Program-made: the position numbers and the translations under genes
Notes under the pieces: model-generated
What the model saw: the letters and a program-made list of their open reading frames with translations, nothing else
Databases searched by the model: none
What the model was told of the DNA's origin: nothing
Source of the DNA: Synechococcus elongatus PCC 6301
GTDB taxonomy: Bacteria; Cyanobacteriota; Cyanobacteriia; Synechococcales; Synechococcaceae
Assembly (NCBI RefSeq): GCF_000010065.1
Contig: NC_006576.1
Coordinates: 1,740,001-1,772,000 of the forward strand
Direction of reading: 5' to 3'
DNA length: 32,000 nt
Shown here: piece by piece, positions 6,915 to 24,173 of the stretch
Position numbering within the stretch: the first letter of the stretch is position 1
How the letters are laid out: each line of letters begins with the position of its first letter

Positions 6915-7190
6915 TCAGCGACCGTATTTGTAGCCAGCCGCGAGAGCCTCCTCGAAGCACGACTTCAGGCTAGGACTCTCATCCAAGAGCTGTCCAACCA
7001 CCAAGTGTGGATTTGCGATTGTAATCCGCTCATTGCGACTGCGACGATCGGACTGATATTGCCATTTCAGATGGTGCAGGCCGAGCTGCTGGAAAGCAGA
7101 CCCTAAAGCGCAGTACTCGCTTGTGCCCCAGTCTTCGATCTCCACAATCACAGTGGCCCAAGCTACCTGCTCGTAGCGGCACAGCCGCAA
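6915..7190 (-). CDS. Hypothetical protein (weak call, possibly a gene remnant)
   Basis: 91-codon ORF with host-like GC content but no ATG anywhere in frame; only TTG 7190 or internal GTGs could serve as a start. An in-frame TAA lies two codons upstream. I recognise no family. Confidence 0.3.
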   Translation of the reverse strand: MRLCRYEQVAWATVIVEIEDWGTSEYCALGSAFQQLGLHHLKWQYQSDRRSRNERITIANPHLVVGQLLDESPSLKSCFEEALAAGYKYGR

Positions 7191-7272
7191 CAGTTAGGCT
7201 GCAGAGCAAGCTGAACTGCGAAGATCTTGATCGCAGCAATTGAGAGGCAGGGGATTTTGCAGTGCCAAGAAC

Positions 7273-7881
7273 CTACGGCTGGCGGGGTTTGAGTCGTGAG
7301 GGCTTGCTTGGTGCTGGCTGAGAAGCTGGCGTCTGCAGCTCTGAGACTTTGCAGTCCTTCTTCAGGAATAAGTCAGTCAAATGTTCGCGGCGGGCGGTCG
7401 CCGTCCCTAGTTCACCGCCAAGCTTCATCAACTCTCCTTGGCTGGTCTCGAGTTCAGCTATTTGGGCTTCCAAAGCACTGAATTCGGCGGCTTGGGCTGC
7501 AGAGCTGGCAAGGCTGCCGACAGTACTAGTAATCAGGCCCGCACCTGGAATCAAACCTGCGAGGCCACTAAGCGTACTGATGGCGCTGGATGCCCCCCCA
7601 ATACCACCAGCAGAGGAAGTCATGGCGCGGCTCGTGCGACTGACTTTGTCCATCAGAGCTTCGTACTGGGTTTGGCGATCGCGGATCGTTGTTTCCAGAT
7701 CCTGCACTTCGGTGTAGAGCTGGGCACAGGTCAGCTCGCCATCGCCGAGTTTTTTGACTGGGCCGGTGGGAAATACCCCTTCGGAATCGAGCAGAGGGTC
7801 AAAAGTTTGAGCAAAGGCAGCACCGATACTCGAACTCAAGAGCATGGGGACGAGCAAAAGCTGACTCAGGAGCCAACGCAT
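7273..7881 (-). CDS. Hypothetical secreted/periplasmic protein with a coiled-coil-like C-terminal half
   Basis: It has an ATG start and a signal-peptide-like N-terminus (MRWLLSQLLLVPMLLSSSIGAAFA|Q). There is a Ser/Gly/Ala-rich centre, a heptad-like segment EFSALEAQIAELETSQGELMKL and a Pro/Lys-rich tail. Confidence 0.6.
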   Translation of the reverse strand: MRWLLSQLLLVPMLLSSSIGAAFAQTFDPLLDSEGVFPTGPVKKLGDGELTCAQLYTEVQDLETTIRDRQTQYEALMDKVSRTSRAMTSSAGGIGGASSAISTLSGLAGLIPGAGLITSTVGSLASSAAQAAEFSALEAQIAELETSQGELMKLGGELGTATARREHLTDLFLKKDCKVSELQTPASQPAPSKPSRLKPRQP

Positions 7882-7952
7882 AGTGGTGTCTCTCGGAAAG
7901 GTTAGGACTGCTGGAGACTGGGGCGATCGCTGCCTTCGCAGTGAACCCCAAG

Positions 7953-8171
7953 TTATGCAGCGGATTGCAGTTGATCGAGTCGCAACCAGACATTGGGCGT
8001 TGGGCGCGAGAAGCGAACAAGGGCATAGTCGCCTTTGATATCCAAGATCTCGCCGTTGGTTTCGAGCACATAGCTGGGAATGCGACCGTCACTGGCCAAC
8101 AGTTCGACGCTGCCTTGAAGTTGCTCGGCGATCGCACGAACCAAAGATCCTTTCTTGAGGGCTGCAGCCAT
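7953..8171 (-). CDS. ndhO: NAD(P)H-quinone oxidoreductase (NDH-1) subunit O
   Basis: 72-aa [12 protein letters not shown] and [25 protein letters not shown] match my recollection of cyanobacterial NdhO sequences. The size also fits. Confidence 0.75.
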
Positions 8172-8478
8172 GGGGCTTATCCGAGGAGCAATACGCCCCT
8201 CATTGTAGGCAGAGTTGGCGATCGCAACAGTTCAGGGACCTGATCAGAGATTGATGAAAATCATAAATTTAGGAATGATGACCTGACAGAACAGCCTTAG
8301 TTCTTATTTATTTAATAATCCTGAAGACTGGCAGCAAAGCTTCATTGAGACTTGACCTAGCGCTTTGGTAAACGCCGTGTTTGAACAAGGTTTGTATCCC
8401 GTGTAGCTAGTTACGGATCAGGTTGACTAAAGTCCGGCAGAATAGAATTAGATTTAAGAGAAGAGGGCCAGACGGTCT

Positions 8479-10059
8479 ATGGCTCGACGATGGGTCCACA
8501 AAAAACGCAACAGCAGCGATCGCGGCTATATCCTAGGCATCGTAATTGTCCTTGCCTTAGTTCTAGGGGTTAGTGTCGCTGCCCTAGCGCTCCGGAGTGC
8601 TGGTGAAAAAGCTGGGTCGAGCCAGCGGAATAGTGTTGATCTGAGCCTTTCAGCAGCAGAAATCGGTCAAGACCGCCTCTTTGCTAATCTCAATGGAGTT
8701 TTTGGACCTTATGCCTCAGCGGCGTTCCCTGATACAACGACAGGAGTTGCAACGACCGCAACTCGTTCTTGGGCACAACTCAGAACAGTTCTGACTTCGG
8801 GAGGGACAGCTAACGCTAATCCCTGCTCAACTCCAACTCCAGACTTTAATATCCTCACGACAGTTGGAACGAGTACTTTAGGAAATAGTGGTCAGCTGAG
8901 TTGGCAGTTGGTTAGCTATAAGCCTCAGGCTAACAATACAGCCCGGGTCGTCATGCGGGGTTTCCAAGGTACAAGTAGCTCAAACATACGAACAGAAGTT
9001 GAGCGAACCTACGCCACACGTCGAGTAACAGCCTTTAATACTGCTTCTACGTTTCCTGCACTGCTGACGGGCAGTGTGACACTAGGGAACAACGATGTAA
9101 TTTCTGTCGTAGATCCAAATACAGGACAATCTGTTTGTAACGCTAATGTTTACTGTCTAACTTGTACCGGTATTAATAATTTTGGCCAGAACCCTCAAAG
9201 TGTTGTTGATGGTGACTTGGTTTATCGTGCAACAACACCCGACGCCGATGGGAACTCTCTACTAAGTAATGGCATTGACTGGAATCAGAATACTAATTTT
9301 CCAGCTCCTAAGGTATGGCCAGGTTATCCAACAATCCCTATTCCTTTTTCTGCAGTAACTAACTTGCAAATTGCAGCTCTTTTTGCGGCACCTTCTTCTA
9401 CTCTAAATCCTGGGTTCTACAATGACTTAGGGGGTAGGCTAAGCCCAAGTAACCCGCTAGATTTACGGCTGAATCCAGATATCACAGGAAGTATCACTCT
9501 TCCGCGCTCAACTGATGTTATTGGAGCAAATGGAGCCTACAACTATTTAGTCCGGGATGTAACAACCAACGGTAATGAGTTTATTCGCGTCAATACGCCT
9601 GGCTGCGAAGGTGTAACCCCCGTCCCAACTTCAACCTGTAAGCCAGTTTATCTATATGTCGTGGGTGACGTGAATGCTGATTTCTTGCATACAAACTCGC
9701 CCACTGGGACTACAACGGTTAATGAGCCGGAAGACTTTGTGATTTTTGGTCGGCCTGGTGACTACACTGCCTCTGGCATTGATCAGACCATTACTATCAA
9801 TGGTGGCTCGCGAGTAACCAGTGCTTTAGTGGTCGCTCCCCGCGCACGAGTAGGCGTCAACGGGGGGTCTAACAACCCAGACTTTTACGGTGCTGTCTGG
9901 TCAAAGGAATGGAATGGCTCTAGTAGTAATAACGTTGAGATTGTTGTTCCCCTCGACATTGCTGAGAGAGCAAGAGAATTCTACAATTCACCCCGTCCAA
10001 CGGTCCTTCGCCTGAACTTCCTAGATATTTGGAGAGCAGGGGGTACGTTTAATCCATGA
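8479..10059 (+). CDS. Large PilX/GspK-like minor pilin (cassette 1), putative pilus-tip protein
   Basis: 526 aa. A basic N-terminus is followed by G|YILGIVIVLALVLGVSVAALAL, a prepilin-like hydrophobic helix without Glu at +5, as in PilX_N/GspK-type proteins. The rest is Asn/Thr/Ser/Gly-rich. It is a paralogue of 11617-13104. Its stop overlaps the next start (ATGA at 10056). Confidence 0.75.
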   Translation: MARRWVHKKRNSSDRGYILGIVIVLALVLGVSVAALALRSAGEKAGSSQRNSVDLSLSAAEIGQDRLFANLNGVFGPYASAAFPDTTTGVATTATRSWAQLRTVLTSGGTANANPCSTPTPDFNILTTVGTSTLGNSGQLSWQLVSYKPQANNTARVVMRGFQGTSSSNIRTEVERTYATRRVTAFNTASTFPALLTGSVTLGNNDVISVVDPNTGQSVCNANVYCLTCTGINNFGQNPQSVVDGDLVYRATTPDADGNSLLSNGIDWNQNTNFPAPKVWPGYPTIPIPFSAVTNLQIAALFAAPSSTLNPGFYNDLGGRLSPSNPLDLRLNPDITGSITLPRSTDVIGANGAYNYLVRDVTTNGNEFIRVNTPGCEGVTPVPTSTCKPVYLYVVGDVNADFLHTNSPTGTTTVNEPEDFVIFGRPGDYTASGIDQTITINGGSRVTSALVVAPRARVGVNGGSNNPDFYGAVWSKEWNGSSSNNVEIVVPLDIAERAREFYNSPRPTVLRLNFLDIWRAGGTFNP

Positions 10060-10649
10060 AGAGAATTCATAAACGATCGCGCCGGTCGCAGTTAGGCTTC
10101 TCACTGGTCGAGATCCTAGTCGCTGCTATTCTGACTGTCCTCTTAGCTCAAGCAACTGCGGCTGCTTTAAGAATTTCAGTCCAAACTCAAAATCGGGCCA
10201 GCACTGAAAACTCTTTTGAAAATGCCATTGTTGCTGATTTAGAGCAAGTTAGAGCTATCAATCGAAATCTTTGCCGTAATCCTAACTTTGATCGCACTGC
10301 AACAACTTCTCCTAACAACCTGAGCTATGGTCCTTTTGGTGACTGTGCTGGAACTATCTTTCAGGAAAGATGCCGGGCAACGGGCACCACACCCGGATTT
10401 GGTAATCTTCTCCAAGCGCAAGTCCCTAATTTTACGAGCCAGACTGTGATTGTGAATGGACAGACTTGGACTATATCTCGACAAACTCTTGTTCCCGATC
10501 GTCCTCTCAACTCAGGAGATGCCGGCTATGCAGAATCGAGTCAGTCAGTATTGAAGGTTAGATATGACTTGACTAGAGGAAGTACAACAATTGCACCGGC
10601 TTTTGTCACCGAGTTTGTTCCTGATGCAGTAGGCTCGTGTCAAGGATAA
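10056..10649 (+). CDS. Prepilin-type N-terminal cleavage/methylation domain pseudopilin, PilV/GspI-like (cassette 1)
   Basis: Canonical motif RRSQLG|FSLVEILVAAILTVLLAQATAAAL with Gly-1, Phe+1 and Glu+5. 197 aa with 4 Cys. Translationally coupled to the upstream gene. Confidence 0.8.
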   Translation: MKRIHKRSRRSQLGFSLVEILVAAILTVLLAQATAAALRISVQTQNRASTENSFENAIVADLEQVRAINRNLCRNPNFDRTATTSPNNLSYGPFGDCAGTIFQERCRATGTTPGFGNLLQAQVPNFTSQTVIVNGQTWTISRQTLVPDRPLNSGDAGYAESSQSVLKVRYDLTRGSTTIAPAFVTEFVPDAVGSCQG

Positions 10650-10794
10650 GTTAATTAACCCTAGTATTAAACTTTCTACTAGATTAAAGGTTTGCCCTTT
10701 CTAGCATGTCCATAGCATTCGTTTAATTCATTCTTTCATCCTGAAACTCAGTAGTCAGTATGACTCGTAGCCTAGCAACAGGAGAACTATCGAG

Positions 10795-11487
10795 ATGAGT
10801 ACGCAACGCCTCTTTTGGCGATGGTTTTTACAGCGTCATGGTGAAGCTGGTATCACTCTAGTCGAGGTTCTAGTTGCGGGTATTATTGGCGTGTTGGTTG
10901 TTTTGGCGGGCGGTTATGCGTTAGTGACCAACCTCCGAGTCGATCGCGAACTGTCATCAGCCGCAATTCAACGCAATCTTCAAACGAGAGCTTTGGAGTA
11001 CATCAGTAGTGAAGTCCGTCAAGCCAACTTAATCTACGCGCCGAATAACACACCGAACCTGTGCAGTAGCTATACGAGAGTCTTGGGGCTGCAAACAACG
11101 GTGAATGGTAGCAATCGCAATATTGTTTATGCGGTTGGCAATGCCAACAACCCATGGCGGGGCGATCGCGTGCTATATCGCTGTGGCCCGCCAATCGATA
11201 CCTCCACTGGACGTTACAGCTCAGGTAGCGACGTTGAAGAAGTGATTTTGGATGGCTTGAGCAGCGCTACCCTGGTGGCTAATAGCAATGGATGTGGTGC
11301 TGTCCCGACGGCCTACGCTGTTAGCAGCAGCAATACAGCAGGCCTGCGTGCTTTTTTCCGTACTGCCAGTAACGTCGTGAACACTAATTCCGCACAAATT
11401 CTGCTGGGGATGCAAATTGATCGAGGTATTCAAGGAAATGCAACGAGTTGTGCAAGCATTGTTGCTTCCAATCGTTCGACCCCTTGA
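10795..11487 (+). CDS. Prepilin-type pseudopilin, PilW/GspJ-like (cassette 1)
   Basis: GEAG|ITLVEVLVAGIIGVLVVLAGGYAL has Glu+5 but Ile at +1. GGAGAA lies 9 nt upstream of the ATG. RNLQTRALEYISSEVRQAN and YRCGPPIDTSTGRY blocks are shared with the 13716-14948 product. Confidence 0.7.
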   Translation: MSTQRLFWRWFLQRHGEAGITLVEVLVAGIIGVLVVLAGGYALVTNLRVDRELSSAAIQRNLQTRALEYISSEVRQANLIYAPNNTPNLCSSYTRVLGLQTTVNGSNRNIVYAVGNANNPWRGDRVLYRCGPPIDTSTGRYSSGSDVEEVILDGLSSATLVANSNGCGAVPTAYAVSSSNTAGLRAFFRTASNVVNTNSAQILLGMQIDRGIQGNATSCASIVASNRSTP

Positions 11488-11616
11488 TAAATGAGTAATG
11501 CTAAGTATTTAGCGATTTTTGATCGCCTAGAGAATCTAGTGAACTGTACTTGTCTACCGCTAGCAGCAAAAATTCACTAAGATTTGGGTATATTCGTCTC
11601 TGGTGCTTAGGCTGCA

Positions 11617-13104
11617 GTGATGGTGAGACCTATCCAACTTGTGCGGGCGTGGTTGATCAGGCGATCGCCTAAGGCACGGTACCGTAAGCCCGGTGGGTAC
11701 ATTTTGGCGACCGTCATTGGTTTGAGCCTTATTTTGGCGGTTGGCATCACCTCAGTCAGCATCCGAGCTGCTGCCGAGCGAGCAGGTAGTTTGCAGACAA
11801 CGACGATAAATCTTTCTCAATCCGCAGCCGAAATTGGGATCGAGCGCTTGTATGCCGTTCTCAACAACGGACCTTATCAGTCATTAGCAAGCAAAAGATT
11901 TGATAGAGATTCAGACACAACTACTTGGACAACAGAGATCAGTAATATCAACTCGGCAGCCAATCAGAACAGTAACAACGTAAGAGGGTGTGGTATTACC
12001 CCAGCAGTTACCACCCAGCAGCAGCTAAATGACTTGACAGCCGGGACTACAACAATTGCTTCTACTTCAAACAATATCTGGTGGAGACTGAAGAGCTATT
12101 CCCCACCGGATCTAACAACTAATCCAAAAACCCCTGCAACTATCGTGATGCAAGGTGGAACAGGTACTAGCTCTGGTGATACCTCAGGTCGAAGAACCGA
12201 AATTGAGAAAAAGTTTTTCCCTGAGAATGGAACCCCCATTCTTCGCAATGCACTAGGAAATGCTGCACTCTTTGCCGGGTCAATTGACCTTGGCAACAAT
12301 GATGTCCTCTCCAGTGATGCTACTCAGGGCTGCGCCAACGTCTATTGCCGGGATTGCCAAACTGGGCAAGGTCCAAACAGTACTGTTGAAGGGGCCGTTA
12401 TTACCTTGCCAGCTTCAGTTCCATTCCCGGAACCAAAAGTCTGGCCATCTTCTGGAGCAACCCAAGCGAATGGTTTCTACGACCGTAAAGGTCAAGCGCA
12501 ACCTTTTGGAACTCCCCCACTCTTACGAGTTGCAGATTTTCCTAATACAGATGCCAATAAGTTTATCAACATTCGAGTTGATGATATTCCTGCCAATTTA
12601 AAAGTCATTAATGACAGTTGTGGGGGAGCTATCAGCACTCCTGATCGATTGCCTGTCAATACCAATTCCGGCTGTAAGCGAGTTGCAATTTACTTTGAAG
12701 GCAATATCACTGGACCTATTACTCAACTTTATGCAGACCTTCCTACGGCTACCTTTCTTCCTTACCCAGAAAATCTAGTTCTTTATGGCTTGCCTTCCAC
12801 TGCCACCGGCAATCAAAACATTACCTTAAGTGGCAACAGTGACAAAATTCAAGGAGCAGTTATCGTAGCTCCCAAAGCCCGTGCTGGGATTAACGGTGGT
12901 CCGCCGAAAAGTCGTACTAACCCAGATGTTTATGGGCCACTCTATGTGGGAATTTGGGATCGCTCTAACAGTAATAACGCAGAAATTGTCGTTCCTTATG
13001 ATATGTTTGCCCGAATTGATGGCTTAATTCCCAATCTCAATGAGATCACGACTTTAGTTTCACTGCGGAGTGCAACATCATGGCAAAAGGGAGGCAATCT
13101 CTAG
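11617..13104 (+). CDS. Large PilX/GspK-like minor pilin (cassette 2), paralogue of 8479-10059
   Basis: 495 aa. G|YILATVIGLSLILAVGITSV lacks Glu+5. Blocks shared with the cassette-1 protein are SAAEIG..RL, W.L.SY.P, LGNNDV, C.NVYC..C, FP.PKVWP, VAP.AR.G.NGG and NN.EIVVP. The start is GTG 11617 or ATG 11620. Confidence 0.75.
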   Translation: MMVRPIQLVRAWLIRRSPKARYRKPGGYILATVIGLSLILAVGITSVSIRAAAERAGSLQTTTINLSQSAAEIGIERLYAVLNNGPYQSLASKRFDRDSDTTTWTTEISNINSAANQNSNNVRGCGITPAVTTQQQLNDLTAGTTTIASTSNNIWWRLKSYSPPDLTTNPKTPATIVMQGGTGTSSGDTSGRRTEIEKKFFPENGTPILRNALGNAALFAGSIDLGNNDVLSSDATQGCANVYCRDCQTGQGPNSTVEGAVITLPASVPFPEPKVWPSSGATQANGFYDRKGQAQPFGTPPLLRVADFPNTDANKFINIRVDDIPANLKVINDSCGGAISTPDRLPVNTNSGCKRVAIYFEGNITGPITQLYADLPTATFLPYPENLVLYGLPSTATGNQNITLSGNSDKIQGAVIVAPKARAGINGGPPKSRTNPDVYGPLYVGIWDRSNSNNAEIVVPYDMFARIDGLIPNLNEITTLVSLRSATSWQKGGNL

Positions 13105-13673
13105 TGGGATTGAGTTTTCTTACCAAGCCTTACAAATCCCTTGGCCGGCGGCGTCGCTCTCAACGAGGCTTTAGCATAACTGAAGTTATCGTTGCTGCCA
13201 TCCTGACCATTTTGATCGCTCAGGCAACAACTGCTGCTTTAGTGGTTAATGCTCGAACTCAGGGCACCTCTGTCGAAGAGTCGCAATTTCTGAGGATTGT
13301 TAACCAAGATGTTGAGCGAGTCCGAGATGTTGCTAGTGCACTGTGTAGAAGCTCAACTTCTCCCTTGAGCTACAACGGTTGCAATCCTCCAACTAATCCC
13401 AGCTTGAAACAACGCTGTGACAGTACAAGTTCTAATGCTGGGCTGGCACAATTACTTTCAAGTAGCCTACCCGCTTTCTCTGACAATATATTTACAAGTA
13501 AAAATCGTTCGACTGTGACGATCACTAGAACTTCCTCTATCCCGACTGTCCCGGGTGCCTCATCTTTCTCTGTGTTACGTCTGGCCTATACTTCATCTGG
13601 TCTATCACCGAATTTATCGTATGTGACGGAAGTGGTGCCGGACGTCGTCGGTTGGTGCTCAACTGCCATTTAA
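13080..13673 (+). CDS. Prepilin-type pseudopilin, PilV/GspI-like (cassette 2)
   Basis: RRSQRG|FSITEVIVAAILTILIAQATTAAL is canonical. The C-terminal VTEVVPDVVGWC parallels VTEFVPDAVGSC in the cassette-1 paralogue. ATG 13080 overlaps the upstream gene by 25 nt. An alternative start is GTG 13104, which overlaps the upstream stop (TAGTG) and has GGGAGG 9 nt upstream. Confidence 0.8.
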   Translation: MAKGRQSLVGLSFLTKPYKSLGRRRRSQRGFSITEVIVAAILTILIAQATTAALVVNARTQGTSVEESQFLRIVNQDVERVRDVASALCRSSTSPLSYNGCNPPTNPSLKQRCDSTSSNAGLAQLLSSSLPAFSDNIFTSKNRSTVTITRTSSIPTVPGASSFSVLRLAYTSSGLSPNLSYVTEVVPDVVGWCSTAI

Positions 13674-13715
13674 AAACCTTCATTCAACTGATCACTAGTT
13701 TTTACAGGCATATCC

Positions 13716-14948
13716 ATGAAGAGCGATAACTTAAGTGCCTTGCTAAGAATCTATTGGGCTCTAGTACCCAAGGATGAAGCGCGATCGCAGCAAGGGTTTA
13801 CGATTACCGAGTTATTGGTCGCCAGTACCATTGGTATCATTGTGATTTTGGGCGGAGGCTATCTGCTTAAGACTAATCTCGATGTCGATCGTGTTAGCTC
13901 TACCAACTCAGCTCAAAGGAATATTCAAAATCGAGCCTTAGATTTTATTAGTAATGAAATTAGGCGGGCCAATGCTGTTGTGAGTTCAAGCTCTCGTTCC
14001 TGTAACGGAGTAACGCCAGTCCTCAGTATTCGAGTACCTGATCCGAGCAACTCTACGAGCACTTCCGCAGTCAGAATTATCGACTACGCCGTTGCTACTC
14101 CAGCTGCTCCTTGGCAAACGACTAGTAATGCTCGGGCGATTTATCGATGTGGCCCAGAGATTAACAGTTCTGGTCAATATGATTTCACTTCTTCCACAAC
14201 CGTGACTGACCTGCTCGTTGATCGAGTTGCAAATGCTAACCCTACGGCAAGCGGTGTTTGTAGCAATCTTAATGCCAATGCAATTACTTCACCTTTTTCG
14301 GGCTCAGCAACAACTAGTGGAACAAACGGTTTAGTTGTTCGCTACGAAGCAAGTGATCCGCGATCGGCTCAAGTCTTGATTGCCTTCTTGCGAAACGTAG
14401 GGAATGGAGGTTCTCCAGGTACCGACTGCGTCACGAATATTGTTGCTGCTCGCGCGATTGATCCTGCCAATATTGCGTCTAGCCCATCGCCTAGCCCTAC
14501 GCCGACACCCACGCCTACGCCGAGCCCATCTCCTACTCCGTCACCTAGCCCTACGCCGACACCCACGCCTACGCCGAGCCCATCTCCCACTCCGTCACCT
14601 AGCCCTACGCCGACACCCACGCCCACGCCAAGCCCATCACCTGCGCCGACTCCCGTTTCTATCTCAATTGCCTCAATTTCTGGTGGAGGTAATAACTCAA
14701 CTGTTGGGCTTAACCTTGGTAGCCTTAGTTTGCTCGCAGGTGTAACCGGTTTCAGGATTTTTGGTTGCACACAAAACAATAGTACCTGTACACCTTCCAC
14801 GGGCGGTACGCCGACCTTAACTACTTCATCCACTACCCCTACTATTCCAAATATCGACTTGCAAGGTAATAGGAGAGCTTGTTTTACTGCTCAAGCAGTT
14901 GGACCTCTCAATATTGTTTTAGGAACTTCTACTGTGTGCACAAATTAA
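13716..14948 (+). CDS. Modular PilW/GspJ-like pseudopilin (cassette 2) with an (S/T)P-repeat linker and an extra C-terminal domain
   Basis: ARSQQG|[24 protein letters not shown] is canonical. The pilin body is paralogous to 10795-11487 ([32 protein letters not shown]). A linker of about 58 aa made of S/T/A-P dipeptides follows, then a module of about 97 aa with 4 Cys. Confidence 0.75.
14481..14654 (+). repeat. In-frame 54-bp tandem repeat (about 3.2 copies) encoding the SP/TP linker
   Basis: The unit agcccatctcctactccgtcacctagccctacgccgacacccacgcctacgccg encodes [18 protein letters not shown]. There are two full copies differing at 3 synonymous sites, flanked by a 42-nt and a 24-nt partial copy. 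Confidence 0.9.
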
Positions 14949-14959
14949 GTTCTATTCTT

Positions 14960-15838
14960 GTGAATTTTGACTTGAAGCCTCTAAATTTGATAAAAACTAT
15001 TTATGATTTCAGTCGACAAGAGGTTCTTTTAACTGAAACTGAGTTGTTTCAGTTACTCCAAAGCTTTGAGGACTGTCCACCTCGTGAGAGTCTACAAAGT
15101 TCCTCTTTTCAGTGGAGGAACCTGTTGTTTTCTCAGGTGTCAGCGGGTAATACGACTTACTGGTATTCCCAACAAATACCGATTCAAATCAATTCAAATT
15201 TAAGTGGTATTGCCAACCATCTAGCTGTAGAGTCTTCAACAGGGAAGCCAGATATTTTATATTGGCGAATCCTTGATTTTTTAAGCCCTGAAAAGCTACA
15301 ACAGCTTTGGAATTATTTACTAACTGCCCGATCGCAATTTAATCCGGCTCACAACTCCGCAGGTTTGAATAACTATCGACAATCTCTTTTTACTGCTCCT
15401 CCTCCTGAAATTTATTCCGAGATCAGTGAAAAGATTTTAGGTGCTTTGATACCAATTGCCGATGAGCTGCCCAATTCCTCACAAGAAATTGGCGAGATAG
15501 AGATGCAAATAACAGCTCACAACGATGGTCATTATTACAAAATTCATAATGATAACGGCAGTCCTGATACAGCTACACGTTTTCTCACTTACGTTTACTA
15601 CTTCTATCGACAACCCAAACCATTTACTGGTGGCGAGCTGCGACTGTATGAACTTGCTATCAAAGATGGCTTTTACGTTGCAGGCGATCGCTATCAAGAC
15701 ATTGAACCGCTACACAATAGCCTGATTGTTTTCCCAAGCCACTACATGCACGAAGTTCTACCGATTCGATGTCCTTCTCAGCGATTTGAGGATAGCCGCT
15801 TTACAGTTAATGGTTGGATTCGAGTTGCTATTGACTGA
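14960..15838 (+). CDS. 2OG-Fe(II) oxygenase superfamily protein, prolyl 4-hydroxylase-like
   Basis: The C-terminal half carries H-N-D (His 15545-15547, Asp 15551-15553) and a distal His in MHEVLPI (15749-15751). An Arg in RFTVNGW (15797-15799) completes the facial triad plus 2OG-binding Arg, with P4H/PF13640-like spacing. There is no in-frame ATG near the 5' end. Candidate starts are GTG 14960 (used here), TTG 14972, or TTG 14879, which has AGGAG 3 nt upstream but overlaps the previous gene by 70 nt. Confidence 0.75.
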   Translation: MNFDLKPLNLIKTIYDFSRQEVLLTETELFQLLQSFEDCPPRESLQSSSFQWRNLLFSQVSAGNTTYWYSQQIPIQINSNLSGIANHLAVESSTGKPDILYWRILDFLSPEKLQQLWNYLLTARSQFNPAHNSAGLNNYRQSLFTAPPPEIYSEISEKILGALIPIADELPNSSQEIGEIEMQITAHNDGHYYKIHNDNGSPDTATRFLTYVYYFYRQPKPFTGGELRLYELAIKDGFYVAGDRYQDIEPLHNSLIVFPSHYMHEVLPIRCPSQRFEDSRFTVNGWIRVAID

Positions 15839-15842
15839 TTTT

Positions 15843-16409
15843 CTAGCTTGAAGTTCGACAGCTACCGCTTTGCACAGTACCAGTTCTGACTAGCCCTAGG
15901 GGTCGTGCAAGAACGACACAGCGTTGTACTGGCGTTAATGTACTACTCAAGCGAATTTCTTGGGTTGCATTACCTGTCCAGTAAACATTGCCGCTGGGAT
16001 ATGCGAGTACGTTTGAACTTAGATTCTGAGCTACTGTGATTTGATTTCTAGCAAAGCTACGACTACGTAAAAGACAATTCCCCGTGGGTGCTGCTGTTGT
16101 ATCACGGTTAATTCCACCAGCAACAAGATCAGTGGCTTTCAAGGTACAGGTTCGATTTAACCGCTGAGCTTCACGTTGCATCTCTAGAATGGCTGACTGT
16201 ACTTCTGAAGTAGCTTGATCTAGCTCTTGCTGACCCAAAAAACCAGCCACGCTAGGTCCTGCGATCGCGGCTAGAATCCCTGCCACAATTAAAACGACTA
16301 AGATCTCAGTGATTGTAAAACCTTGCGATCGCACTGCTCGGCGTAAATGAGCATAAAGTAAACGCTGCTCTAAGACGAGTTTTAATCGTGACATTGCTAA
16401 CCTTTCCAT
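15843..16409 (-). CDS. Prepilin-type pseudopilin, FimT/FimU/GspH-like
   Basis: VRSQG|FTITEILVVLIVAGILAAIAGPS is followed by GFLGQQELDQATSEVQSAILEMQREAQRLN, a layout typical of GspH/FimT-family pseudopilins. It converges on the oxygenase gene with a 4-nt gap. Confidence 0.8.
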   Translation of the reverse strand: MERLAMSRLKLVLEQRLLYAHLRRAVRSQGFTITEILVVLIVAGILAAIAGPSVAGFLGQQELDQATSEVQSAILEMQREAQRLNRTCTLKATDLVAGGINRDTTAAPTGNCLLRSRSFARNQITVAQNLSSNVLAYPSGNVYWTGNATQEIRLSSTLTPVQRCVVLARPLGLVRTGTVQSGSCRTSS

Positions 16410-16909
16410 CCCAACGCGATCGCAGCTTACCTCTATTCTCGCAAACGATGCAGGGATTAGCTTGCCCTAGGCGAGCGATCTTGTGCCAAAGACCGATCGC
16501 CTGGCCTTTCCTGATCAATACTCAGTGACTCTCTAACTATAGTCAGCGCATGATCAACAGAGGCTACCTAGTAAAAAAGATAGGACTGGTGTAGTCGAAT
16601 AAGGATCAGCTTATCTTCAACAACAACTCACTACGCTCAAACATTGCTTAGCTACTCTCTGAGACTGTCGCGATCGCCTTCAACCCCTGCCAGAGTAGTA
16701 CTGCCAATGTCTGAATTCTTGTTGTGTCTACCGCTTCTCCTGCGCAGAGAGTAGATCAGTGATCGACCCCAAGAACTCTCTGGTATTCCAAAGAAACCAG
16801 TAATCTCCTATCCATTAGTGATAGCGATCGCTGTTGGGGCGGATTTCTCGCCTGCCAGCATCAAGGCCCGAGTGTCAGAGTAGAAGGAGAACCCTTCAGA
16901 GGCAGACTG

Positions 16910-17284
16910 ATGACCGACGTACTGCCCACGATCGAACTGTTTGATGGCATCGCTGAAGAACTCGATAACGTCAGCTTGCGGCGCGATCGCCAATCCGGCA
17001 CCCGCAATGTCTTGCTCCGCTTCCGTGCCCTCAAAGCCCTTGATCGCTTCAATAGTTTCCGAAGCCGCTTTTCCAAAGCGATTCGCCTCACCGATAGTGA
17101 AGGGGCAATCGAACTTTGGCCCGACTCCTCCAAGTTGGTGTTTGGCGGTGATGACGGCGATGAACTGGACCGCGTCGAGTTTGTCGTCCCGATCGACAAT
17201 GAAGACCACTGGCAACGCTTCATGCGATTTATGGAGCGCTACGCTGCGGCCAATGACATGACCTACGGCGATCGCCAGGCATAA
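16910..17284 (+). CDS. psb28-2: Photosystem II Psb28-family protein (Psb28-2 type)
   Basis: 124 aa. LRRDRQSGTRNVLLRF and HWQRFMRFMERYAAANDMTY match the conserved Psb28 blocks (..TGT..F.F and W.RFMRFMERYA). Confidence 0.85.
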   Translation: MTDVLPTIELFDGIAEELDNVSLRRDRQSGTRNVLLRFRALKALDRFNSFRSRFSKAIRLTDSEGAIELWPDSSKLVFGGDDGDELDRVEFVVPIDNEDHWQRFMRFMERYAAANDMTYGDRQA

Positions 17285-17299
17285 CGACGGGAGATAGGT

Positions 17300-18196
17300 G
17301 TGAAGATTGCGATTACGGGTGCGACAGGCTTCGTTGGGCAGCGCTTAGTCGAACGACTGCAGGCCGAGGGTCACGAACTGCGCATTCTCAGTCAGCGACC
17401 GACTGTGGCGCAGCAACTGACGGGCTGCCAAGTCTTCGATACTGCGACTGAAACGAGCTGGTTAGCAGCGCTAGAAGGTGCTGATGCAGTCGTCAATTTA
17501 GCGGGGGAACCGATCGCAGAACAACGCTGGACACCAGCCCAAAAACAACGCCTTAAAAACAGTCGTGTTCAAACCACTCGGGCCTTGGTGACTGCGATCA
17601 CGGCCGCAACCCAGAAACCCCAAGTCCTCGTCACTGCCTCTGCGATCGGCTACTACGGCACCAGCGAAACGGCGCAATTTACGGAGGAGAGTGCTGCTGG
17701 ACAGGATTACCTCGCGGAAATTTGCCAAGCCTGGGAACAGGAGGCGCAAGCGGTAACAGTGAGTGGGACCCGTTTGGTGACCCTGCGAATTGGAATTGTT
17801 GTTGGCCCAGGTGGCGCGATCGGCAAAATGCTTGGTCCCTTCAAGCTGTTTGCTGGTGGCCCGATCGGCAGCGGTCGGCAGTGGGTCTCTTGGATTCAAC
17901 GAGAAGACTTGGTCTCGCTGATTCTGGAAGCGATCGCTAATCCCAGCTATCAAGGGACTTACAACGCCACAGCGCCACAGGCAGTGCGAATGGCTGACCT
18001 CAGTGCCACCCTTGGTGAAGTCCTACAGCGGCCATCTTGGTTGCCAGTGCCGGCGTTTGCCCTCGAAGCACTCCTGGGTGAAGGGGCGCTACTAGTTCTG
18101 GAAGGTCAGCAAGTGCTGCCCAAACGCTTGGAAGCCGCGGGTTTTCAATTCCGCTATCCCGATCTGAAATCAGCGCTGCAGCAATTCCTGCCCTAG
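17300..18196 (+). CDS. TIGR01777/YfcH-type NAD-dependent epimerase family protein (SDR with a DUF1731 C-terminus)
   Basis: GTG start 15 nt after psb28-2. Rossmann motif MKIAITGATGFVGQRL, then NLAGEPIAEQRWT, SAIGYYG, GSGRQWVSWIQREDL and a C-terminal GFQFRYPDLKSAL. Confidence 0.85.
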   Translation: MKIAITGATGFVGQRLVERLQAEGHELRILSQRPTVAQQLTGCQVFDTATETSWLAALEGADAVVNLAGEPIAEQRWTPAQKQRLKNSRVQTTRALVTAITAATQKPQVLVTASAIGYYGTSETAQFTEESAAGQDYLAEICQAWEQEAQAVTVSGTRLVTLRIGIVVGPGGAIGKMLGPFKLFAGGPIGSGRQWVSWIQREDLVSLILEAIANPSYQGTYNATAPQAVRMADLSATLGEVLQRPSWLPVPAFALEALLGEGALLVLEGQQVLPKRLEAAGFQFRYPDLKSALQQFLP

Positions 18197-18504
18197 CTGA
18201 CAACCGCCATCGGAGCGATCGCCGCAGGCGTGAGCGATCGCTTCAGGATGACAAGTTGAATCAGGCCGCAAATCACCGTCAAGCCACAGAGGATAAAGGT
18301 GGGAGCGGCAACCACACCCACTGCCCACCAGCTATAGACATGGAGCACCATCAAGATCGCTGGCAGCGCTCCAGCCAGGGCGAGGCTGCGTTGCCAAATG
18401 CGAGGGGCTTCCGCCAATACCAGCAAAATCGCACTGAAGGTCAGCAGAATCGTCAGCGGTACCAAGGCGCCACAAAGGGCGATACAGTGCTCACGCGAAA
18501 ACAT
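18193..18504 (-). CDS. Small hypothetical membrane protein (about 3 TM helices)
   Basis: ATG at 18504; the ORF track extends to a GTG at 18570. The product is 103 aa and strongly hydrophobic (ALCGALVPLTILLTFSAILLVLA, ALPAILMVLHVYSWWAVGVVAAPTFILCGLTVICGLIQLVIL). I recognise no family. Confidence 0.45.
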   Translation of the reverse strand: MFSREHCIALCGALVPLTILLTFSAILLVLAEAPRIWQRSLALAGALPAILMVLHVYSWWAVGVVAAPTFILCGLTVICGLIQLVILKRSLTPAAIAPMAVVS

Positions 18505-18667
18505 CGACAGACTGCACAACCAAGACACGCGATCGCAAACTCCTACCGAAACAGAGACCGGCGATAGCACGGCTCGCTGATCAGCCTAACGCTGATACCA
18601 GAGAAAAACCGCGAACCGTAACGATCGGTGAGTATTTGCTCAGATTCGCAGCATCGAGCGATCGGCT

Positions 18668-20092
18668 TTAACAAGTGGCTTCCAAGCGTTGCCGCACAGA
18701 GGCCAAGGCTGATCGTACTTGCTCAAAACCCGTGCCACCCAAGCTGTTGCGGGCTGCAACAACCTGTTGCGGTGCGATCGCTGTGTAGATGTCGGCTTCA
18801 AACTGCGGGTGTAGAGCCTGCCATTCAGCCAAGCTCAAATCCTTCAGGAGTTTGCCTTGCTCCAAACAGGTGCGCACCACGCGACCGACGAGGTTGTAGG
18901 CTTCTCGGAAAGGCACACCCCGCGCTGCCAAGTAGTCTGCGACATCTGTAGCATTGGAAAAATCGGCTTCGACCGCTGCCGCTAGGCGATCGGGCTGGAA
19001 GCTCAGACCTTCTGCAAACAAAATCGTCATGGCTTCGAGGCAGCTTTCCACGGTTTGCACTGCGTCAAACAAGCCTTCTTTGTCTTCCTGCAAGTCCTTG
19101 TTGTAGGCCAACGGTAAGCCTTTCAAAACGACGAGCAGCGCTTGCAGATGCCCAAACACCCGTCCCGTCTTGCCCCGCACTAGCTCTGGCACATCAGGAT
19201 TTTTCTTCTGCGGCGTGATACTGGAGCCAGTGGCGCAGCGATCGCTGAGGCGAACAAAGCGAAACTCCTCCGAAGCCCAGAGGATCACTTCCTCAGCCAA
19301 GCGGCTGAGGTGCACCATGATCAAGCTGGCGGCTGCCAGAAATTCCACGAGACTATCGCGATCGCTGACGGCATCCAAGCTGTTGGCGTAGATGCGTTCA
19401 AAGCCGAGTAATGCCGCCGTGCGCTGGCGATCGATTGGGAAAGTTGTCCCCGCCAAGGCCCCTGCGCCCAAAGGAGAGGTATTCAGGCGCTTGCGCAGGT
19501 CGCCTAATCGTTCCCAATCACGCTCTGCCATCTCTAAGTAGGCATGGAGATGATGTGCCAAGCTCAAGGGCTGGGCGCGTTGCAGGTGGGTATAGCCCGG
19601 AATTAATGTCTCAAGGTGTTGCTCGGCTTGGCTCAGTAGAACACGCTGATAGTCACGCAATTGCTGACGAATGTGATCGACGCGGTCGCGCAGATAGAGC
19701 CGCGTATCTGTACCCACTTGGTCATTGCGCGATCGGGCGGTGTGGAGCTTTTTACCAACATCGCCGAGGAGTTCTGTCAGTCGCCGTTCCACCGCAAAGT
19801 GGACATCCTCAGCATCCAATCCTGGCTGGAATTGACCGGTGCGATATTCACTGCGAATCTGCTCAAGCCCAGCGACGATCGCCTCACCTTCCTCGCGGCT
19901 GATGATGTCTTGCTCTGCCAGCATTTGCGCATGCGCCTGGGACCCCGTGAGGTCATATTCGATCAGCGCCAGATCAAAACCGATACTGGCATTGAAAACC
20001 ACGATCGCTGGATGGAGCGCTGTCTCGAAGCGATCGCTCCAGGGTTGTGGGGCAGCAGCTTGGGTCACCAGAATCTTTGTGCGGAAGGCCAA
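18668..20092 (-). CDS. argH: Argininosuccinate lyase
   Basis: WSDRFE near the N-terminus, then [30 protein letters not shown] and the signature [12 protein letters not shown]. The listed start, 20092, is a TTG. GTG 20068 (giving [15 protein letters not shown]) is an equally plausible start. Confidence 0.95.
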
Positions 20093-20175
20093 AGGCGATC
20101 ATAGTCCCGACTGGCCTGTTAGGGGCAGCCAGACTGCAGCCCGGCCAAAGGCGCGATCGCCTCGGGGACTCACAA

Positions 20176-20337
20176 TCAGCCGTAGCTGGTGAACTTGGCA
20201 ACAAAATAACCAAACGCCATCCCAAACAGCGCTGCCCAAGCCTGACCAGAACTGACAAAGCCCTCCCAAGCCTGGCGCATATTTTGAAGGACATCGCTAT
20301 TGCTGACGTCAATGGCAAACCGGACCGCTTCTAGCAT
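20176..20337 (-). CDS. Small hypothetical protein with a C-terminal hydrophobic segment (53 aa, below the ORF-track cutoff)
   Basis: Hand translation from ATG 20337 to TGA 20176-20178 gives MLEAVRFAIDVSNSDVLQNMRQAWEGFVSSGQAWAALFGMAFGYFVAKFTSYG. It fills the gap between the PP2C gene and argH on the same strand and has host-like codon composition. Confidence 0.4.
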   Translation of the reverse strand: MLEAVRFAIDVSNSDVLQNMRQAWEGFVSSGQAWAALFGMAFGYFVAKFTSYG

Positions 20338-20392
20338 TGTTGCGTTTCCACAAAAGGGTCTACAGCAGATCGCTCACCGATCCATCGTCTCG

Positions 20393-21781
20393 TCAAACGG
20401 CCCGCAGGACTACGAGGGTCATGTCATCTTCATTGTGGCGATCGGGCCCAATGAAGCGCTGGACTCGGTTGAATAGGTCGGCTAGGAGGGCTTCTGCTGA
20501 CAGTCGTCGCCGGCAAGCCTCACGGAAGGCGATCGCGACGTTCTCCTCATCGAAGCGGTTACCCCGCGGATCAGCCGCATCGGTCAAACCATCGGTGTAG
20601 TAGAGAACCACATCGCCCGGCTGAAGCTGCACGTGCTGTTCGGCGTAGGCATTATCGGCTTCGAGGCCAATCATCATGCCAAAGGTGTCGAGGCGCTTGA
20701 GGGTGCCCGTTGCCTGTTGCCAGAGCAGGGGTGGATTGTGGGCCGCATTGCTAAAGGTCAGCAAGCGCGAGCTGGGATCGTATTCCGAGTAAAACAGCGT
20801 GGCGAAGCGATTGGAATGCTCGAGGTCCGCGTAGATCACCTGATTGAGGTGTGCCAAGACCCGACTGGGCCGGTGCCGGTTCAGCACCTCTGCCCGCAGC
20901 ATGCCGCGCAGCATCGTCATGATCAAGCCAGCGGGGACGCCTTTGCCCATGATGTCGCCGATTGCGATCGCCCAGGGCGAGCCTGCATCGGGCTGCAAGC
21001 GTCCCTGTTCATCGCTGTGGGTGCGGGTAGGAATGAAGTCGTAGTAATCCCCGCCCACGCGGCTCGCTGTTCGACAGGCCGCCGCAATTTCTAAGCCTTC
21101 AATCGCCGGGCACTGACTCGGCAGTAATTGCAACTGAATTTCAGCACCAATTTCTAATTCGCGATCGAGGCGTTCTTTTTGGCGTAGCTCGGTGGTCAGC
21201 GCATCATTTTCTATCGCAACAGCAGTTTGATCCGCCACTAAGCGAACCAGTTTTTGACGCGATTCATTCCAGCTGTACTGGCCATCTAAGCTGAAGACGT
21301 ACAGCCGTCCACGGGCTTGGTTCCGCACCAAAACGGCGGTGGCAAATAACTGCGCGTTGCGGCCTAGACAGCGTTGCACTTGGCGATCGATCTCAGCGAT
21401 TGCTTCCGTTGGGGAACCACTGGGAGCCGTCCCAACCGGCAAGCTTGCGGGAATTCGATTCAGGGTCTCCGCAAGGCGGGGATCAGTGCAGTGTAGTTGC
21501 GCCTGCCAAAAGCGACCGTCGGGCCGAAAGGTCAATAACAGACTGCCTTCAGTGTCGGTGACTCGACTGGCAATGAGTGGGATCAGTTCTAGGAACTGGC
21601 CCAAATTGGTGAAGCTGCGGAGCGCGAACCCTAGGGAGGCCAACAATTCCTGAGCTTTGCGCTGTTCGCGATCGAGGCGCGCGACCAGATCCTTGAGGGC
21701 AATGACTGGTGAAAGGCTAGCTGAACCTTCCCCCGCCGAAGCCGGCGAAGCCGCGGGTTGGAAATAGGGGAGCGTCGTCAT
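20393..21781 (-). CDS. PP2C-family (SpoIIE/RsbU-like) serine phosphatase with an N-terminal sensor (GAF-like) region
   Basis: The C-terminal half has GGDYYDFI, IGDIMGKGVPAGLIMTMLRGMLRAEV, LYYTDGLTDA and DDMTLVVLR, the SpoIIE/PP2C metal-binding blocks. The N-terminal region of about 200 aa is of GAF-domain size. Confidence 0.85.
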   Translation of the reverse strand: MTTLPYFQPAASPASAGEGSASLSPVIALKDLVARLDREQRKAQELLASLGFALRSFTNLGQFLELIPLIASRVTDTEGSLLLTFRPDGRFWQAQLHCTDPRLAETLNRIPASLPVGTAPSGSPTEAIAEIDRQVQRCLGRNAQLFATAVLVRNQARGRLYVFSLDGQYSWNESRQKLVRLVADQTAVAIENDALTTELRQKERLDRELEIGAEIQLQLLPSQCPAIEGLEIAAACRTASRVGGDYYDFIPTRTHSDEQGRLQPDAGSPWAIAIGDIMGKGVPAGLIMTMLRGMLRAEVLNRHRPSRVLAHLNQVIYADLEHSNRFATLFYSEYDPSSRLLTFSNAAHNPPLLWQQATGTLKRLDTFGMMIGLEADNAYAEQHVQLQPGDVVLYYTDGLTDAADPRGNRFDEENVAIAFREACRRRLSAEALLADLFNRVQRFIGPDRHNEDDMTLVVLRAV

Positions 21782-21960
21782 AAGAGGACGGGCAGCTACG
21801 CTAAAAGCGATGGGAGAAAAGTTCCCAACGGTTATAGCACCTTATTTCTGGATTCGTGCAAATCCCCATCTAAATTGAGGTTCCTTGCAGTGATTGCCCA
21901 AAACAACCGTCAGGCATGGTCAATCTAGTGCGAATCAATGTCGATTCAGTTCAAAAAAAC

Positions 21961-23517: not shown

Positions 23518-23531
23518 AGGAACAGCAGAAG

Positions 23532-24173
23532 TTAGGAAGACGGACGGGCCGCACGGGCTGCTTTGCCTAGCATGGTGCTGAGGCGGCGCAACACGCCATT
23601 GATGAAGCGGCGACCTTCTTCATCACTGTACCGGTTGGCCAATTCCACTGCTTCGTTGATCGCCACTTGCTCGGGGGTACCTAAGAACAGAATTTCTGCG
23701 GCGGCTAACCGCAAAATGTCTTGGTCGAGGCGGGGCACGCGGTGCAGTTGCCAGTCCACCATCACATCATTCAAGGTGCGATCGATGCGTTCGCGGTTGT
23801 TGCTGACTTGCAGCACTAGCCGGCCGCCAAATTTGCGTACTTCTTCGCGATCGGTTAGTTGCACCCACTCGGGCAAGTCCAGGGCATTGCCGGTGCGGTT
23901 AATTGCAGCCTGGGCCATTTCGATCACCTCTTGGAGCATCGCCCGTGAGCTTTCCAGATCGGCAGAGCCCAAGGTGCTCAATAGCAAGCGATCGCTGCTC
24001 TGCTTCAATTCTGCGGAAGCGGCTTCTAGGTGATCGCGGGCTTCTGCGGCGAGGGTGCGGGTTGCCGCCAACAACAGCTCCGAGAGCATTTGGTCGGAGG
24101 GTGGCTCGGCTTTCGCTGGAAGCTGGCTCAAACTGAGCAAAGCCAGTTCACGAGCAATACGGCGGGGTTGCAT
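23532..24173 (-). CDS. nusB: Transcription antitermination factor NusB
   Basis: RRIARELALLSLSQL at the N-terminus, plus ILRLAAAEILF, VAINEAVELANRYSDEEGRRFINGVLRR. It is a long cyanobacterial-type NusB (213 aa). Confidence 0.9.
   Translation of the reverse strand: MQPRRIARELALLSLSQLPAKAEPPSDQMLSELLLAATRTLAAEARDHLEAASAELKQSSDRLLLSTLGSADLESSRAMLQEVIEMAQAAINRTGNALDLPEWVQLTDREEVRKFGGRLVLQVSNNRERIDRTLNDVMVDWQLHRVPRLDQDILRLAAAEILFLGTPEQVAINEAVELANRYSDEEGRRFINGVLRRLSTMLGKAARAARPSS

Follow-up and report, generated by a model that had tools for sequence, protein, structure and literature searches.

The gene Synpcc7942_2480 (below, 2480; the other genes of the locus are shortened likewise) lies at positions 14960-15838 (+) of a 32,000-nucleotide stretch of Synechococcus elongatus PCC 6301 (NC_006576.1, positions 1,740,001 to 1,772,000), which we call the window. 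From the start codon GTG 14960 it encodes a PF13640 oxygenase of 292 amino acids that is dependent on 2-oxoglutarate (2OG) and Fe(II), and it follows 2481 (13716-14948, +), a PilW-like minor prepilin of 410 amino acids that consists of a pilin domain, a linker of X-Pro dipeptides and a C-terminal module. We put at roughly even the probability that 2480 is a cytoplasmic Fe(II)-, 2OG- and O2-dependent prolyl hydroxylase whose substrates are the X-Pro spacers of surface proteins, here the linker of 2481. Hydroxylation of the linker has comparative support, because X-Pro proteins are enriched next to homologous oxygenases, glycosyltransferases recur as neighbors of these enzymes, and the oxygenase and the pilin genes of S. 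elongatus share one genomic island.

The product of 2480 is annotated as "Prolyl 4-hydroxylase, alpha subunit" and agrees at every residue (100% identity) with P0001, a protein of S. elongatus PCC 6311/7942, and a literature search found no paper on Synpcc7942_2480. In an alignment of 20 family sequences the catalytic domain had 48 invariant columns. The iron facial triad, H196-x-D198 (15545-15553, +) and the distal histidine H264 (15749-15751, +), and the 2OG-binding arginine R280 in the motif RFTVNGW (15797-15799, +) were invariant, and an earlier note on this DNA, made from its letters, had located these residues correctly. With PF13640 the protein scored 67.5 bits, where the cut-off is 27 (E = 2e-18), over the full length of the profile (1-98), and PF13661 was also matched. 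We built an AlphaFold2 model from the 20-sequence alignment (predicted local distance difference test score [pLDDT], 81.6), and its double-stranded beta-helix fold superposed on solved prolyl hydroxylases. The best solved structures found by Foldseek were PHD2, Pseudomonas putida PPHD (4iw3/4j25) and Dictyostelium PhyA (DdPhyA; 6t8m), with E values of about 5e-11 to 1e-9, a probability of 1.00, target template modeling scores of 0.60-0.70 and about 20% identity. When the family profile was compared with all PDB sequences, DdPhyA (6t8m, E = 3e-10) and PPHD (E = 0.009) were the sole prolyl hydroxylases at E <= 10; PMC7864055 bears out the identities of both entries (6T8M and 4IW3). No chain of a collagen/extensin-type prolyl 4-hydroxylase (P4H) matched the family profile in the PDB at E <= 10, and none was found in the top 50 Foldseek PDB matches, all of which were of PHD type. 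Because the profile and Foldseek matches were of PHD type and none was of collagen type, 2480 is, as judged from sequence and model, a member of the prolyl-hydroxylase structural family on its PHD/PhyA side and not on its collagen side. The earlier description of the enzyme as P4H-like is thus supported for the structural family, as 2480 does not group with hydroxylases outside the P4H/PHD fold class, and not supported for the collagen/extensin type. By its residues, 2480 is a catalytically intact PHD/PhyA-like enzyme, and prolyl hydroxylase activity is predicted for it. A search of a viral fold library with the oxygenase returned uncharacterized cyanophage 2OG oxygenases alone.

The N-terminal domain of 2480, approximately 72 amino acids (14960-15175, +), has three alpha helices followed by three beta strands in the AlphaFold2 secondary structure and is common to the Pseudanabaena-type subfamily. 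It had been left without assignment before and stays so: it had no Pfam match, and a separate AlphaFold2 model (pLDDT, 72.5) gave no Foldseek PDB match better than an E value of 0.27. A winged-helix fold was considered for this domain and set aside as unsupported, as there was no significant Foldseek match.

The candidate substrate, 2481, carries the prepilin motif GFTITELLV at nucleotide 13794 and with it a class III signal peptide (G|F-T-x-x-E) and a hydrophobic alpha1-N helix, and its N_methyl match of 20.5 bits (E = 3.5e-4) is slightly below the cut-off of 21.2. It also takes the PilW position in a PilX-PilV-PilW minor-pilin cassette, with the GspH-like pilA2 at the same locus. At 410 versus 230 amino acids it is, as the earlier note had counted, 180 codons longer than its paralogue 2484 from the other cassette; the two proteins are 32% identical (E = 8e-24), and their alignment stops at residue ~247 of 2481. 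The extra part has the composition described previously, a 58-amino-acid linker and a 97-amino-acid module. The linker (14481-14654, +), which is the proposed hydroxylation target, consists of 29 consecutive X-Pro dipeptides in which the partners of proline are serine, threonine and alanine alone (14 S, 13-15 T and 2 A), so that its sequence is a repetitive SP/TP/AP glycomodule like those of extensins and arabinogalactan proteins (AGPs). Its coding DNA is a 54-bp tandem repeat (2.8 copies, 94% identity, nucleotides 14490-14642), and the linker is therefore young and length-labile. Two other S. elongatus short-read contigs (L096 and L097) stop just upstream of the oxygenase, in or beside the linker repeat. 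Two further open reading frames (ORFs) of the window, 14369-14833 (-; 154 amino acids, GLGVGVGV...) and 14404-14745 (+; 113 amino acids, HRLALRRHP...), are other-frame readings of the same repeat and not genes, and the gene calls of strain UTEX 2973 list the antisense one of these ORFs instead of the pilin.

The C-terminal module of 2481 (14655-14948, +) is rich in threonine, glycine, serine and asparagine, contains 4 cysteines and is FN3-like. A full-library search with it found three weak relatives. It was 37% identical (E = 4e-5) to the last ~85 residues of P0123, a 907-amino-acid modular PilW-like prepilin (GFTLLELLIA...RVELNRALDYISEEIKGA), and it also resembled the repeats of P0124; both the P0123 segment and the P0124 repeats have an FN3-type look with two conserved cysteine pairs. 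The module thus appears to be a small cysteine-bridged beta-sandwich like those on other modular PilW proteins. P0123 has neither an X-Pro linker nor an adjoining oxygenase. An unrelated metagenomic cluster (L178, 622-6713) encodes a PilX-like protein of 492 amino acids, proteins of 176 and 219 amino acids, the 907-amino-acid modular PilW-like protein, whose cysteine-bridged modules are repeated, and a 171-amino-acid prepilin; FN3-like C-terminal modules thus occur on a modular PilW there, yet without X-Pro linker or oxygenase. The pilin domain of 2481 had one detectable homologue in 5.8 billion proteins, P0121 (222 amino acids), which has no linker and whose small pilin cluster has no oxygenase. 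Linker and FN3-like module are therefore missing in both the paralogue 2484 and the sole detectable homologue.

Several features of the locus connect 2480 with 2481. Three starts are possible for the oxygenase gene, TTG 14879 (70-nucleotide overlap with the pilin gene), GTG 14936 (13-nucleotide overlap, as in GenBank CP000100) and GTG 14960 (11-nucleotide gap), the first and last of which had already been given in the earlier note. Thus, 2480 immediately follows 2481 on the same strand after an 11-nucleotide gap or with an overlap of 13-70 nucleotides, an arrangement that looks operon-like with the one pilin of this locus that has an X-Pro linker. A scan for promoters and terminators found nothing between the pilin and oxygenase genes, with counts no higher than in shuffled sequences. 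The GC content at third codon positions (GC3) was 0.35 for the oxygenase and 0.30-0.48 for the pilin genes, versus 0.57-0.71 for the host genes on both sides. The oxygenase is part of a low-GC island (GC 0.41-0.51) that extends from rntA to pilA2 (~8479-16409), with pilA2 as its right end, and this island, including the oxygenase, was probably acquired horizontally, as judged from its composition. The catalytic domain of the S. elongatus enzyme was also the most divergent of our sample, with 48-53% identity to the others versus 57-80% among the others, as would be expected had the gene been acquired horizontally along with those of the pilins. In the table of PMC7125226, 2480 and 2481 are both noncircadian and similar in amplitude, peak time and shade response; cassette 1, in contrast, peaks at dusk and is shade induced.

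To see the enzyme in other genomes, we turned to its family, which is widespread in cyanobacteria (1037 matches in a protein search; 295 genome and 227 metagenome loci). The neighborhoods of 160 loci were analyzed: 80 came from genomes of species representatives (1.33 Mb), and metagenomes supplied the other 80 (0.61 Mb). A regular expression for the prepilin motif, which recovered 5/5 prepilins of the window, found no canonical prepilin motif at any of the 160 loci, and when every pilin of the window was used as a phmmer query, the only cluster returned, at L090-92, was oxygenase-free. On these two results a pilin-specific association of the family was rejected. The earlier note had set a lack of co-conservation with pilin genes, beforehand, as an outcome that would speak against hydroxylation of the pilin, and, taken literally, this is the outcome: the family is not co-conserved with them. 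There was also no universal gene neighbor. The best neighbor clusters covered at most 20 of the 80 genome loci and represented lineage synteny, and five contexts inspected by gene calls had housekeeping neighbors. The N-terminal domains were swapped between lineages (RHH-like in L127, MauE-thioredoxin in L023, small alpha/beta in S. elongatus).

These results favor the main rival explanation, in which the oxygenase serves a housekeeping function in the cytoplasm and hydroxylates a conserved protein inside the cell, such as a translation factor or ribosomal protein (compare PPHD/EF-Tu and OGFOD1/Tpa1/uS12), its position next to the pilin is a by-product of the island insertion, and the linker is an unhydroxylated "PT linker" that is possibly O-glycosylated on Ser/Thr. 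The presence of the family across cyanobacteria, the high conservation of the catalytic domain, and the variable, mostly housekeeping contexts with no canonical prepilin genes nearby are what this explanation would lead one to expect. It also agrees with the best structural matches (PHD2, PPHD and DdPhyA), with the JGI name "Rps23 Pro-64 3,4-dihydroxylase Tpa1-like," with the missing signal peptide of 2480 and with the lack of a clear pilus-related fitness phenotype for 2480 or 2481. We nevertheless regard it as unlikely, though far from negligible, since it does not explain why the oxygenase has the foreign composition common to the pilin island, why non-homologous X-Pro proteins adjoin the enzyme in five other enzyme lineages (0.57 expected) or why protein glycosyltransferases do so as well.

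The X-Pro neighbors were found in a scan that was prompted by (AP)n runs in a Nostoc neighbor seen while neighbors were being clustered. We defined an X-Pro neighbor as an ORF of at least 100 amino acids with at least 8 consecutive X-Pro dipeptides at most 2.5 kb from the oxygenase. Such a neighbor was present at 27 of the 160 loci (0.66 Mb of near regions), while the outer flanks of the same loci, used as a control, contained 1 such ORF in 1.15 Mb, which corresponds to an expectation of 0.57 for the near regions. Part of this signal is inherited synteny, because 22 of the X-Pro loci belong to a single Nostocales cluster. When the 161 enzymes were grouped at 80% catalytic-domain identity into 50 clusters, X-Pro neighbors were found in 6, or 5 without the window, and a Poisson probability of ~3e-4 was calculated by hand for 5 versus 0.57 expected, with independence being approximate. 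Among the recurring X-Pro neighbors are two further pilus proteins (L110 and L127). Several homologue contigs, L033 among them, have an X-Pro repeat at one of their ends, and since contigs break at these repeats, X-Pro neighbors are probably undercounted in fragmented assemblies.

By sequence comparison, the X-Pro neighbors are mutually non-homologous and appear to have in common only the repeat and the exported location. In Nostocales (Nostoc, Calothrix, Aliinostoc, Anabaena and others), the neighbor directly follows the oxygenase gene on the same strand and encodes a protein with a Sec signal peptide, a PEP-CTERM anchor, (AP)n/(TPAP)n runs (one or two per protein, at most ~80 dipeptides long) and a globular domain that depends on the genus; in Nostoc this domain is that of an XDD4 exosortase-dependent surface protein (NF045504, E = 3.5e-44). 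Examples are L029 11012-12622, L031 10999-11895, L052 11510-12670 and L063 11008-12435. Across these proteins the signal peptide, the X-Pro runs and the "YYQPP...VPEP" anchor are retained, while the globular domain is exchanged: some proteins have XDD4, others a different beta-rich domain, and that of L063 has a KADYEK coiled-coil repeat. In Coleofasciculus H7-2 (L033), a PEP-CTERM protein with (AP)24 is encoded just upstream of the oxygenase. Coleofasciculus B1-GNL1-01 (L023) and L099 have an operon-like arrangement, in which the first gene encodes a PqqD domain (PF05402), a transmembrane segment, (S/T-P)14 and an 8-cysteine module and is followed after 16 nucleotides by a fusion of MauE (5 transmembrane segments), a thioredoxin-like domain with CPYC and the oxygenase (L023 9056-10621; L099 3492-5051). 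The thioredoxin part of the fusion resembles the disulfide oxidoreductases ResA, TrbB and PedC. The topology of the fusion is ambiguous: the positive-inside rule points to the cytoplasm, whereas the thioredoxin relatives are extracytoplasmic.

Pilus-type neighbors were found in two lineages besides the window. In L127/L134, a protein with a PilW-type motif (RVDLNRAQDFIADEVRMA) comparable to that of 2481, (TP)42, a cysteine-containing module, a second TP run and DUF4082 is encoded on the same strand by a gene that ends 91 nucleotides upstream of the oxygenase and whose N-terminus is lost at the contig end; downstream of the oxygenase are genes for a multi-transmembrane protein and then a JmjC/Cupin_8 oxygenase. 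In L110, whose enzyme is in the S. elongatus-like subfamily, the neighbor is a convergent gene for a 591-amino-acid PilX/RntA-type protein with matches to DUF7305 (E = 8.6e-5) and the HpsA N-terminus (E = 4e-4), collinear matches to 2483, and a C-terminus made of (SP)34 and a cysteine mini-module (TCTTGTWNAKAGKCVGK). The pilus identity of the L110 and L127 proteins was first recognized by reading the X-Pro ORFs, and the DUF7305/HpsA matches and short BLAST matches came later. X-Pro linkers were thus present in all three pilus-type neighbors (window, L110 and L127) and in no other pilin-like gene of the window, L090 or L178.

Glycosyltransferases were the second kind of suggestive neighbor. In L023/L099, and at these two loci only, the gene that overlaps the stop codon of the oxygenase encodes a "GlcNAc" glycosyltransferase of PF11397 (E = 2e-73); beyond Pfam, the L023 protein had no PDB or NCBIfam match. 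PF11397 is the Pfam family of Dictyostelium Gnt1, and the order of oxygenase and glycosyltransferase would thus parallel the PhyA-Gnt1 pair that makes GlcNAc-O-hydroxyproline on Skp1. Gnt1 is the hydroxyproline GlcNAc-transferase acting on PhyA-modified Skp1 (PMC8724618). No PF11397 glycosyltransferase was found in the S. elongatus window. A gene for a PMT protein (PF02366, protein O-mannosyltransferase family) is convergent with the oxygenase in Allocoleopsis L179, in Stenomitos L070, in L117 and in L050. The multi-transmembrane protein encoded between the oxygenase and JmjC genes of L127 (3414-5123, 569 amino acids, many transmembrane helices, no Pfam or NCBIfam match) is possibly a glycosyltransferase of GT-C type and would then be an analogue of the PMT protein of L179. 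Overall, these neighbors allow a wider proposal, which we hold tentatively and give clearly less than an even chance: that cyanobacteria in general possess a system for hydroxylating, before export, the X-Pro spacers of surface proteins, including pilus-tip and PEP-CTERM/exosortase proteins, with a PHD/PhyA-like enzyme that in some lineages would work alongside a GlcNAc-transferase like Gnt1 or a mannosyltransferase of PMT type to yield hydroxyproline glycans.

Other recurrent neighbors were also considered as partners of the oxygenase. A gene for an ankyrin-repeat protein of ~500 amino acids is convergent downstream of the oxygenase at ~45 of the 160 loci, many of them of Oscillatoriales type (L179 8703-10229, -; L129 1070-2557, -), and an FIH-like JmjC/Cupin_8 oxygenase adjoins in L179, L070 and L127/L134. 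FIH-type enzymes hydroxylate ankyrin repeats. One could therefore imagine that the oxygenase acts on or through such a neighbor, or that it is an O2-, 2OG- or Fe-sensing module whose variable N-terminal domain couples sensing to the control of surface-protein genes; the swapping of N-terminal domains between lineages and an RHH_1 match at the N-terminus of the L127 enzyme (E = 0.007) would suit the second possibility. We consider both improbable. The S. elongatus window lacks an ankyrin gene, the ankyrin neighbors seem to be a single homologous gene kept in place by inherited synteny, this gene is convergent and not operonic, the RHH match is under the Pfam threshold, and the S. elongatus N-terminal domain has no match to a DNA-binding fold. 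Additionally, the full conservation of the catalytic residues argues for an enzyme rather than a pure sensor.

Under the preferred reading, hydroxylation of the linker by 2480, the substrate would be encoded directly upstream of the enzyme and probably co-translated with it. The enzyme would modify the linker while its chain is still unfolded in the cytoplasm, either ahead of Sec-dependent export or as export proceeds. With hydroxyproline, the polyproline-II spacer would become stiffer and might offer sites for glycosylation. With the polyproline-II rise of ~0.31 nm per residue, the spacer would measure ~18 nm if fully extended and could hold the FN3-like, cysteine-bridged module beyond the pilus tip.

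Several observations weigh against this reading, in addition to the missing prepilin genes and collagen-type matches reported above and the confinement of most X-Pro loci to one Nostocales cluster. The main mechanistic objection is a mismatch of compartments. No signal peptide or transmembrane segment was found in 2480 with any of its three starts, while the final location of the linker is extracytoplasmic, and prepilins are inserted by the signal recognition particle and Sec, probably co-translationally. This objection is softened because all candidate substrates are intrinsically unfolded repeats, because the Coleofasciculus enzyme is membrane tethered (L023/L099, the only membrane-anchored homologue, through the MauE fusion of ambiguous topology) and because Ogt provides a precedent: glycosylation of the S. 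elongatus pilin PilA depends on this cytoplasmic-type GT41 enzyme (PMC9306852). The comparative data also have a negative side, as 133 of the 160 homologue loci have no X-Pro neighbor, including most of the closest subfamily (Pseudanabaena, L111). X-Pro linkers are common in bacteria without any P4H, and the closest solved relatives of 2480 act on one proline in a specific protein and not on repeats. In the literature, hydroxyproline is unreported in any cyanobacterial pilin or surface protein.

Transposon data do not favor the reading either. Both 2480 and 2481 are non-essential in random-barcode transposon sequencing (RB-TnSeq) data, and in the natural-transformation screen the fitness values were -0.98 for 2480 (p 0.08) and -0.35 for 2481, neither of them significant, compared with -2.7 for rntA and -2.3 for rntB (PMC7125226). 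Similarly, the genes that the Fitness Browser lists as cofit with ogt include cassette 1 and pilA2, which track the type IV pilus machinery, but not cassette 2 (2483-2481) or 2480 (PMC9306852). We regard the transposon phenotypes of 2480 and 2481 as uninformative.

We compared 2480 and its proposed substrate with the closest known systems. With the PHD-type enzymes (DdPhyA/Skp1, PPHD/EF-Tu and PHD2/EGLN1/HIF) it shares PF13640, the double-stranded beta-helix, HxD...H plus arginine and a presumed cytoplasmic location. However, identity is ~20%, 2480 has an extra, lineage-variable N-terminal domain of ~100 amino acids, and PHD-type enzymes target one proline of a folded protein in the cytosol, whereas the substrates proposed here are long X-Pro spacers of exported proteins; HIF and Skp1 are, to our knowledge, absent from bacteria. 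The collagen/extensin-type P4Hs (Cr-P4H-1, PBCV-1 vCPH, plant P4Hs and Bacillus anthracis P4H) belong to the same structural superfamily as 2480. They act on (Ser-Pro)n, (Pro-Ala-Pro-Lys)n, extensin SPPPP and the AP/SP/TP modules of AGPs, and these are the sequence types that adjoin the cyanobacterial enzymes; in plants, the hydroxyproline is subsequently O-glycosylated. The eukaryotic enzymes of this type sit in the lumen of the endoplasmic reticulum or Golgi apparatus beside their substrates, in contrast to 2480 with its lack of a signal peptide. Like the linker of 2481, bacterial PT linkers are extended S/T-Pro spacers between domains of exported proteins, and O-glycosylation of Ser/Thr is among the known modifications of pilins. 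No hydroxyproline has been reported in the literature for PT linkers or type IV pilins, in agreement with the earlier note, which knew of no proline hydroxylation of a type IV pilin, and 2481 differs from them by its adjoining P4H-type gene.

Hydroxyproline-rich spacer proteins are regarded as a plant and algal hallmark, and our literature search found no report of a cyanobacterial P4H acting on proline-rich surface proteins or spacers. The sequence data suggest that cyanobacteria may hydroxylate prolines in X-Pro spacers as plants do in cell-wall proteins. If so, a modification dependent on O2, Fe and 2OG would be added to the biology of cyanobacterial pili and surface proteins, a widespread uncharacterized oxygenase family would gain a role, and the PilW2 protein of S. 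elongatus (2481) would be the first hydroxyproline-containing pilin. Such a system would correspond, in bacteria, to the modification of AGPs and extensins in plants and to the PhyA-Gnt1 pathway of protists, to which it might also be related by descent, and the emergence of the protist and plant pairs of P4H and hydroxyproline glycosyltransferase could then be placed in a bacterial setting. As S. elongatus PCC 7942 is genetically tractable and the candidate enzyme and substrate genes are adjacent, the proposal is directly testable.

The remaining genes of the locus were named by comparison with PCC 7942 (CP000100), to which positions 6935-23837 of the window (16.9 kb) are 99.96% identical, with 6 substitutions and no indels. 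Locus tags were taken from Supplementary Data 1 of Taton 2020 (PMC7125226) and the CP000100 gene calls, and genes on the + strand have descending PCC 7942 numbers. Cassette 1 (8479-11487, +) comprises rntA (2486, 8479-10059, +), rntB (2485, 10056-10649, +) and the PilW-like prepilin 2484 (10795-11487, +); rntA and rntB are needed for natural transformation (PMC7125226). Cassette 2 comprises the PilX/RntA-like 2483 (11617-13104, +; 34% identity to RntA, E = 1e-53), the PilV/RntB-like prepilin 2482 (13080-13673, +; 38% identity to RntB, with a prepilin motif) and 2481. The order 2483-2482-2481 mirrors rntA-rntB-2484, and the two three-gene PilX-PilV-PilW cassettes are paralogous pair by pair (34%, 38% and 32% identity). 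Convergent on the oxygenase is pilA2 (2479, 15843-16409, -), a GspH/FimT-like prepilin with N_methyl and GspH matches and a GC3 of 0.33, and psb28-2 (2478, 16910-17284, +) follows. Cyanobacterial core sets of the Com type have the composition PilX-PilV-PilW-FimT (bioRxiv 10.64898/2026.02.12.705559); the window has two PilX-PilV-PilW cassettes plus the FimT/GspH-like pilA2, and it differs from the core set in the oxygenase gene inserted between the cassette-2 PilW gene and pilA2. Cassette 2 and the oxygenase together appear as an insertion between PilW1 (2484) and the FimT-like pilA2.

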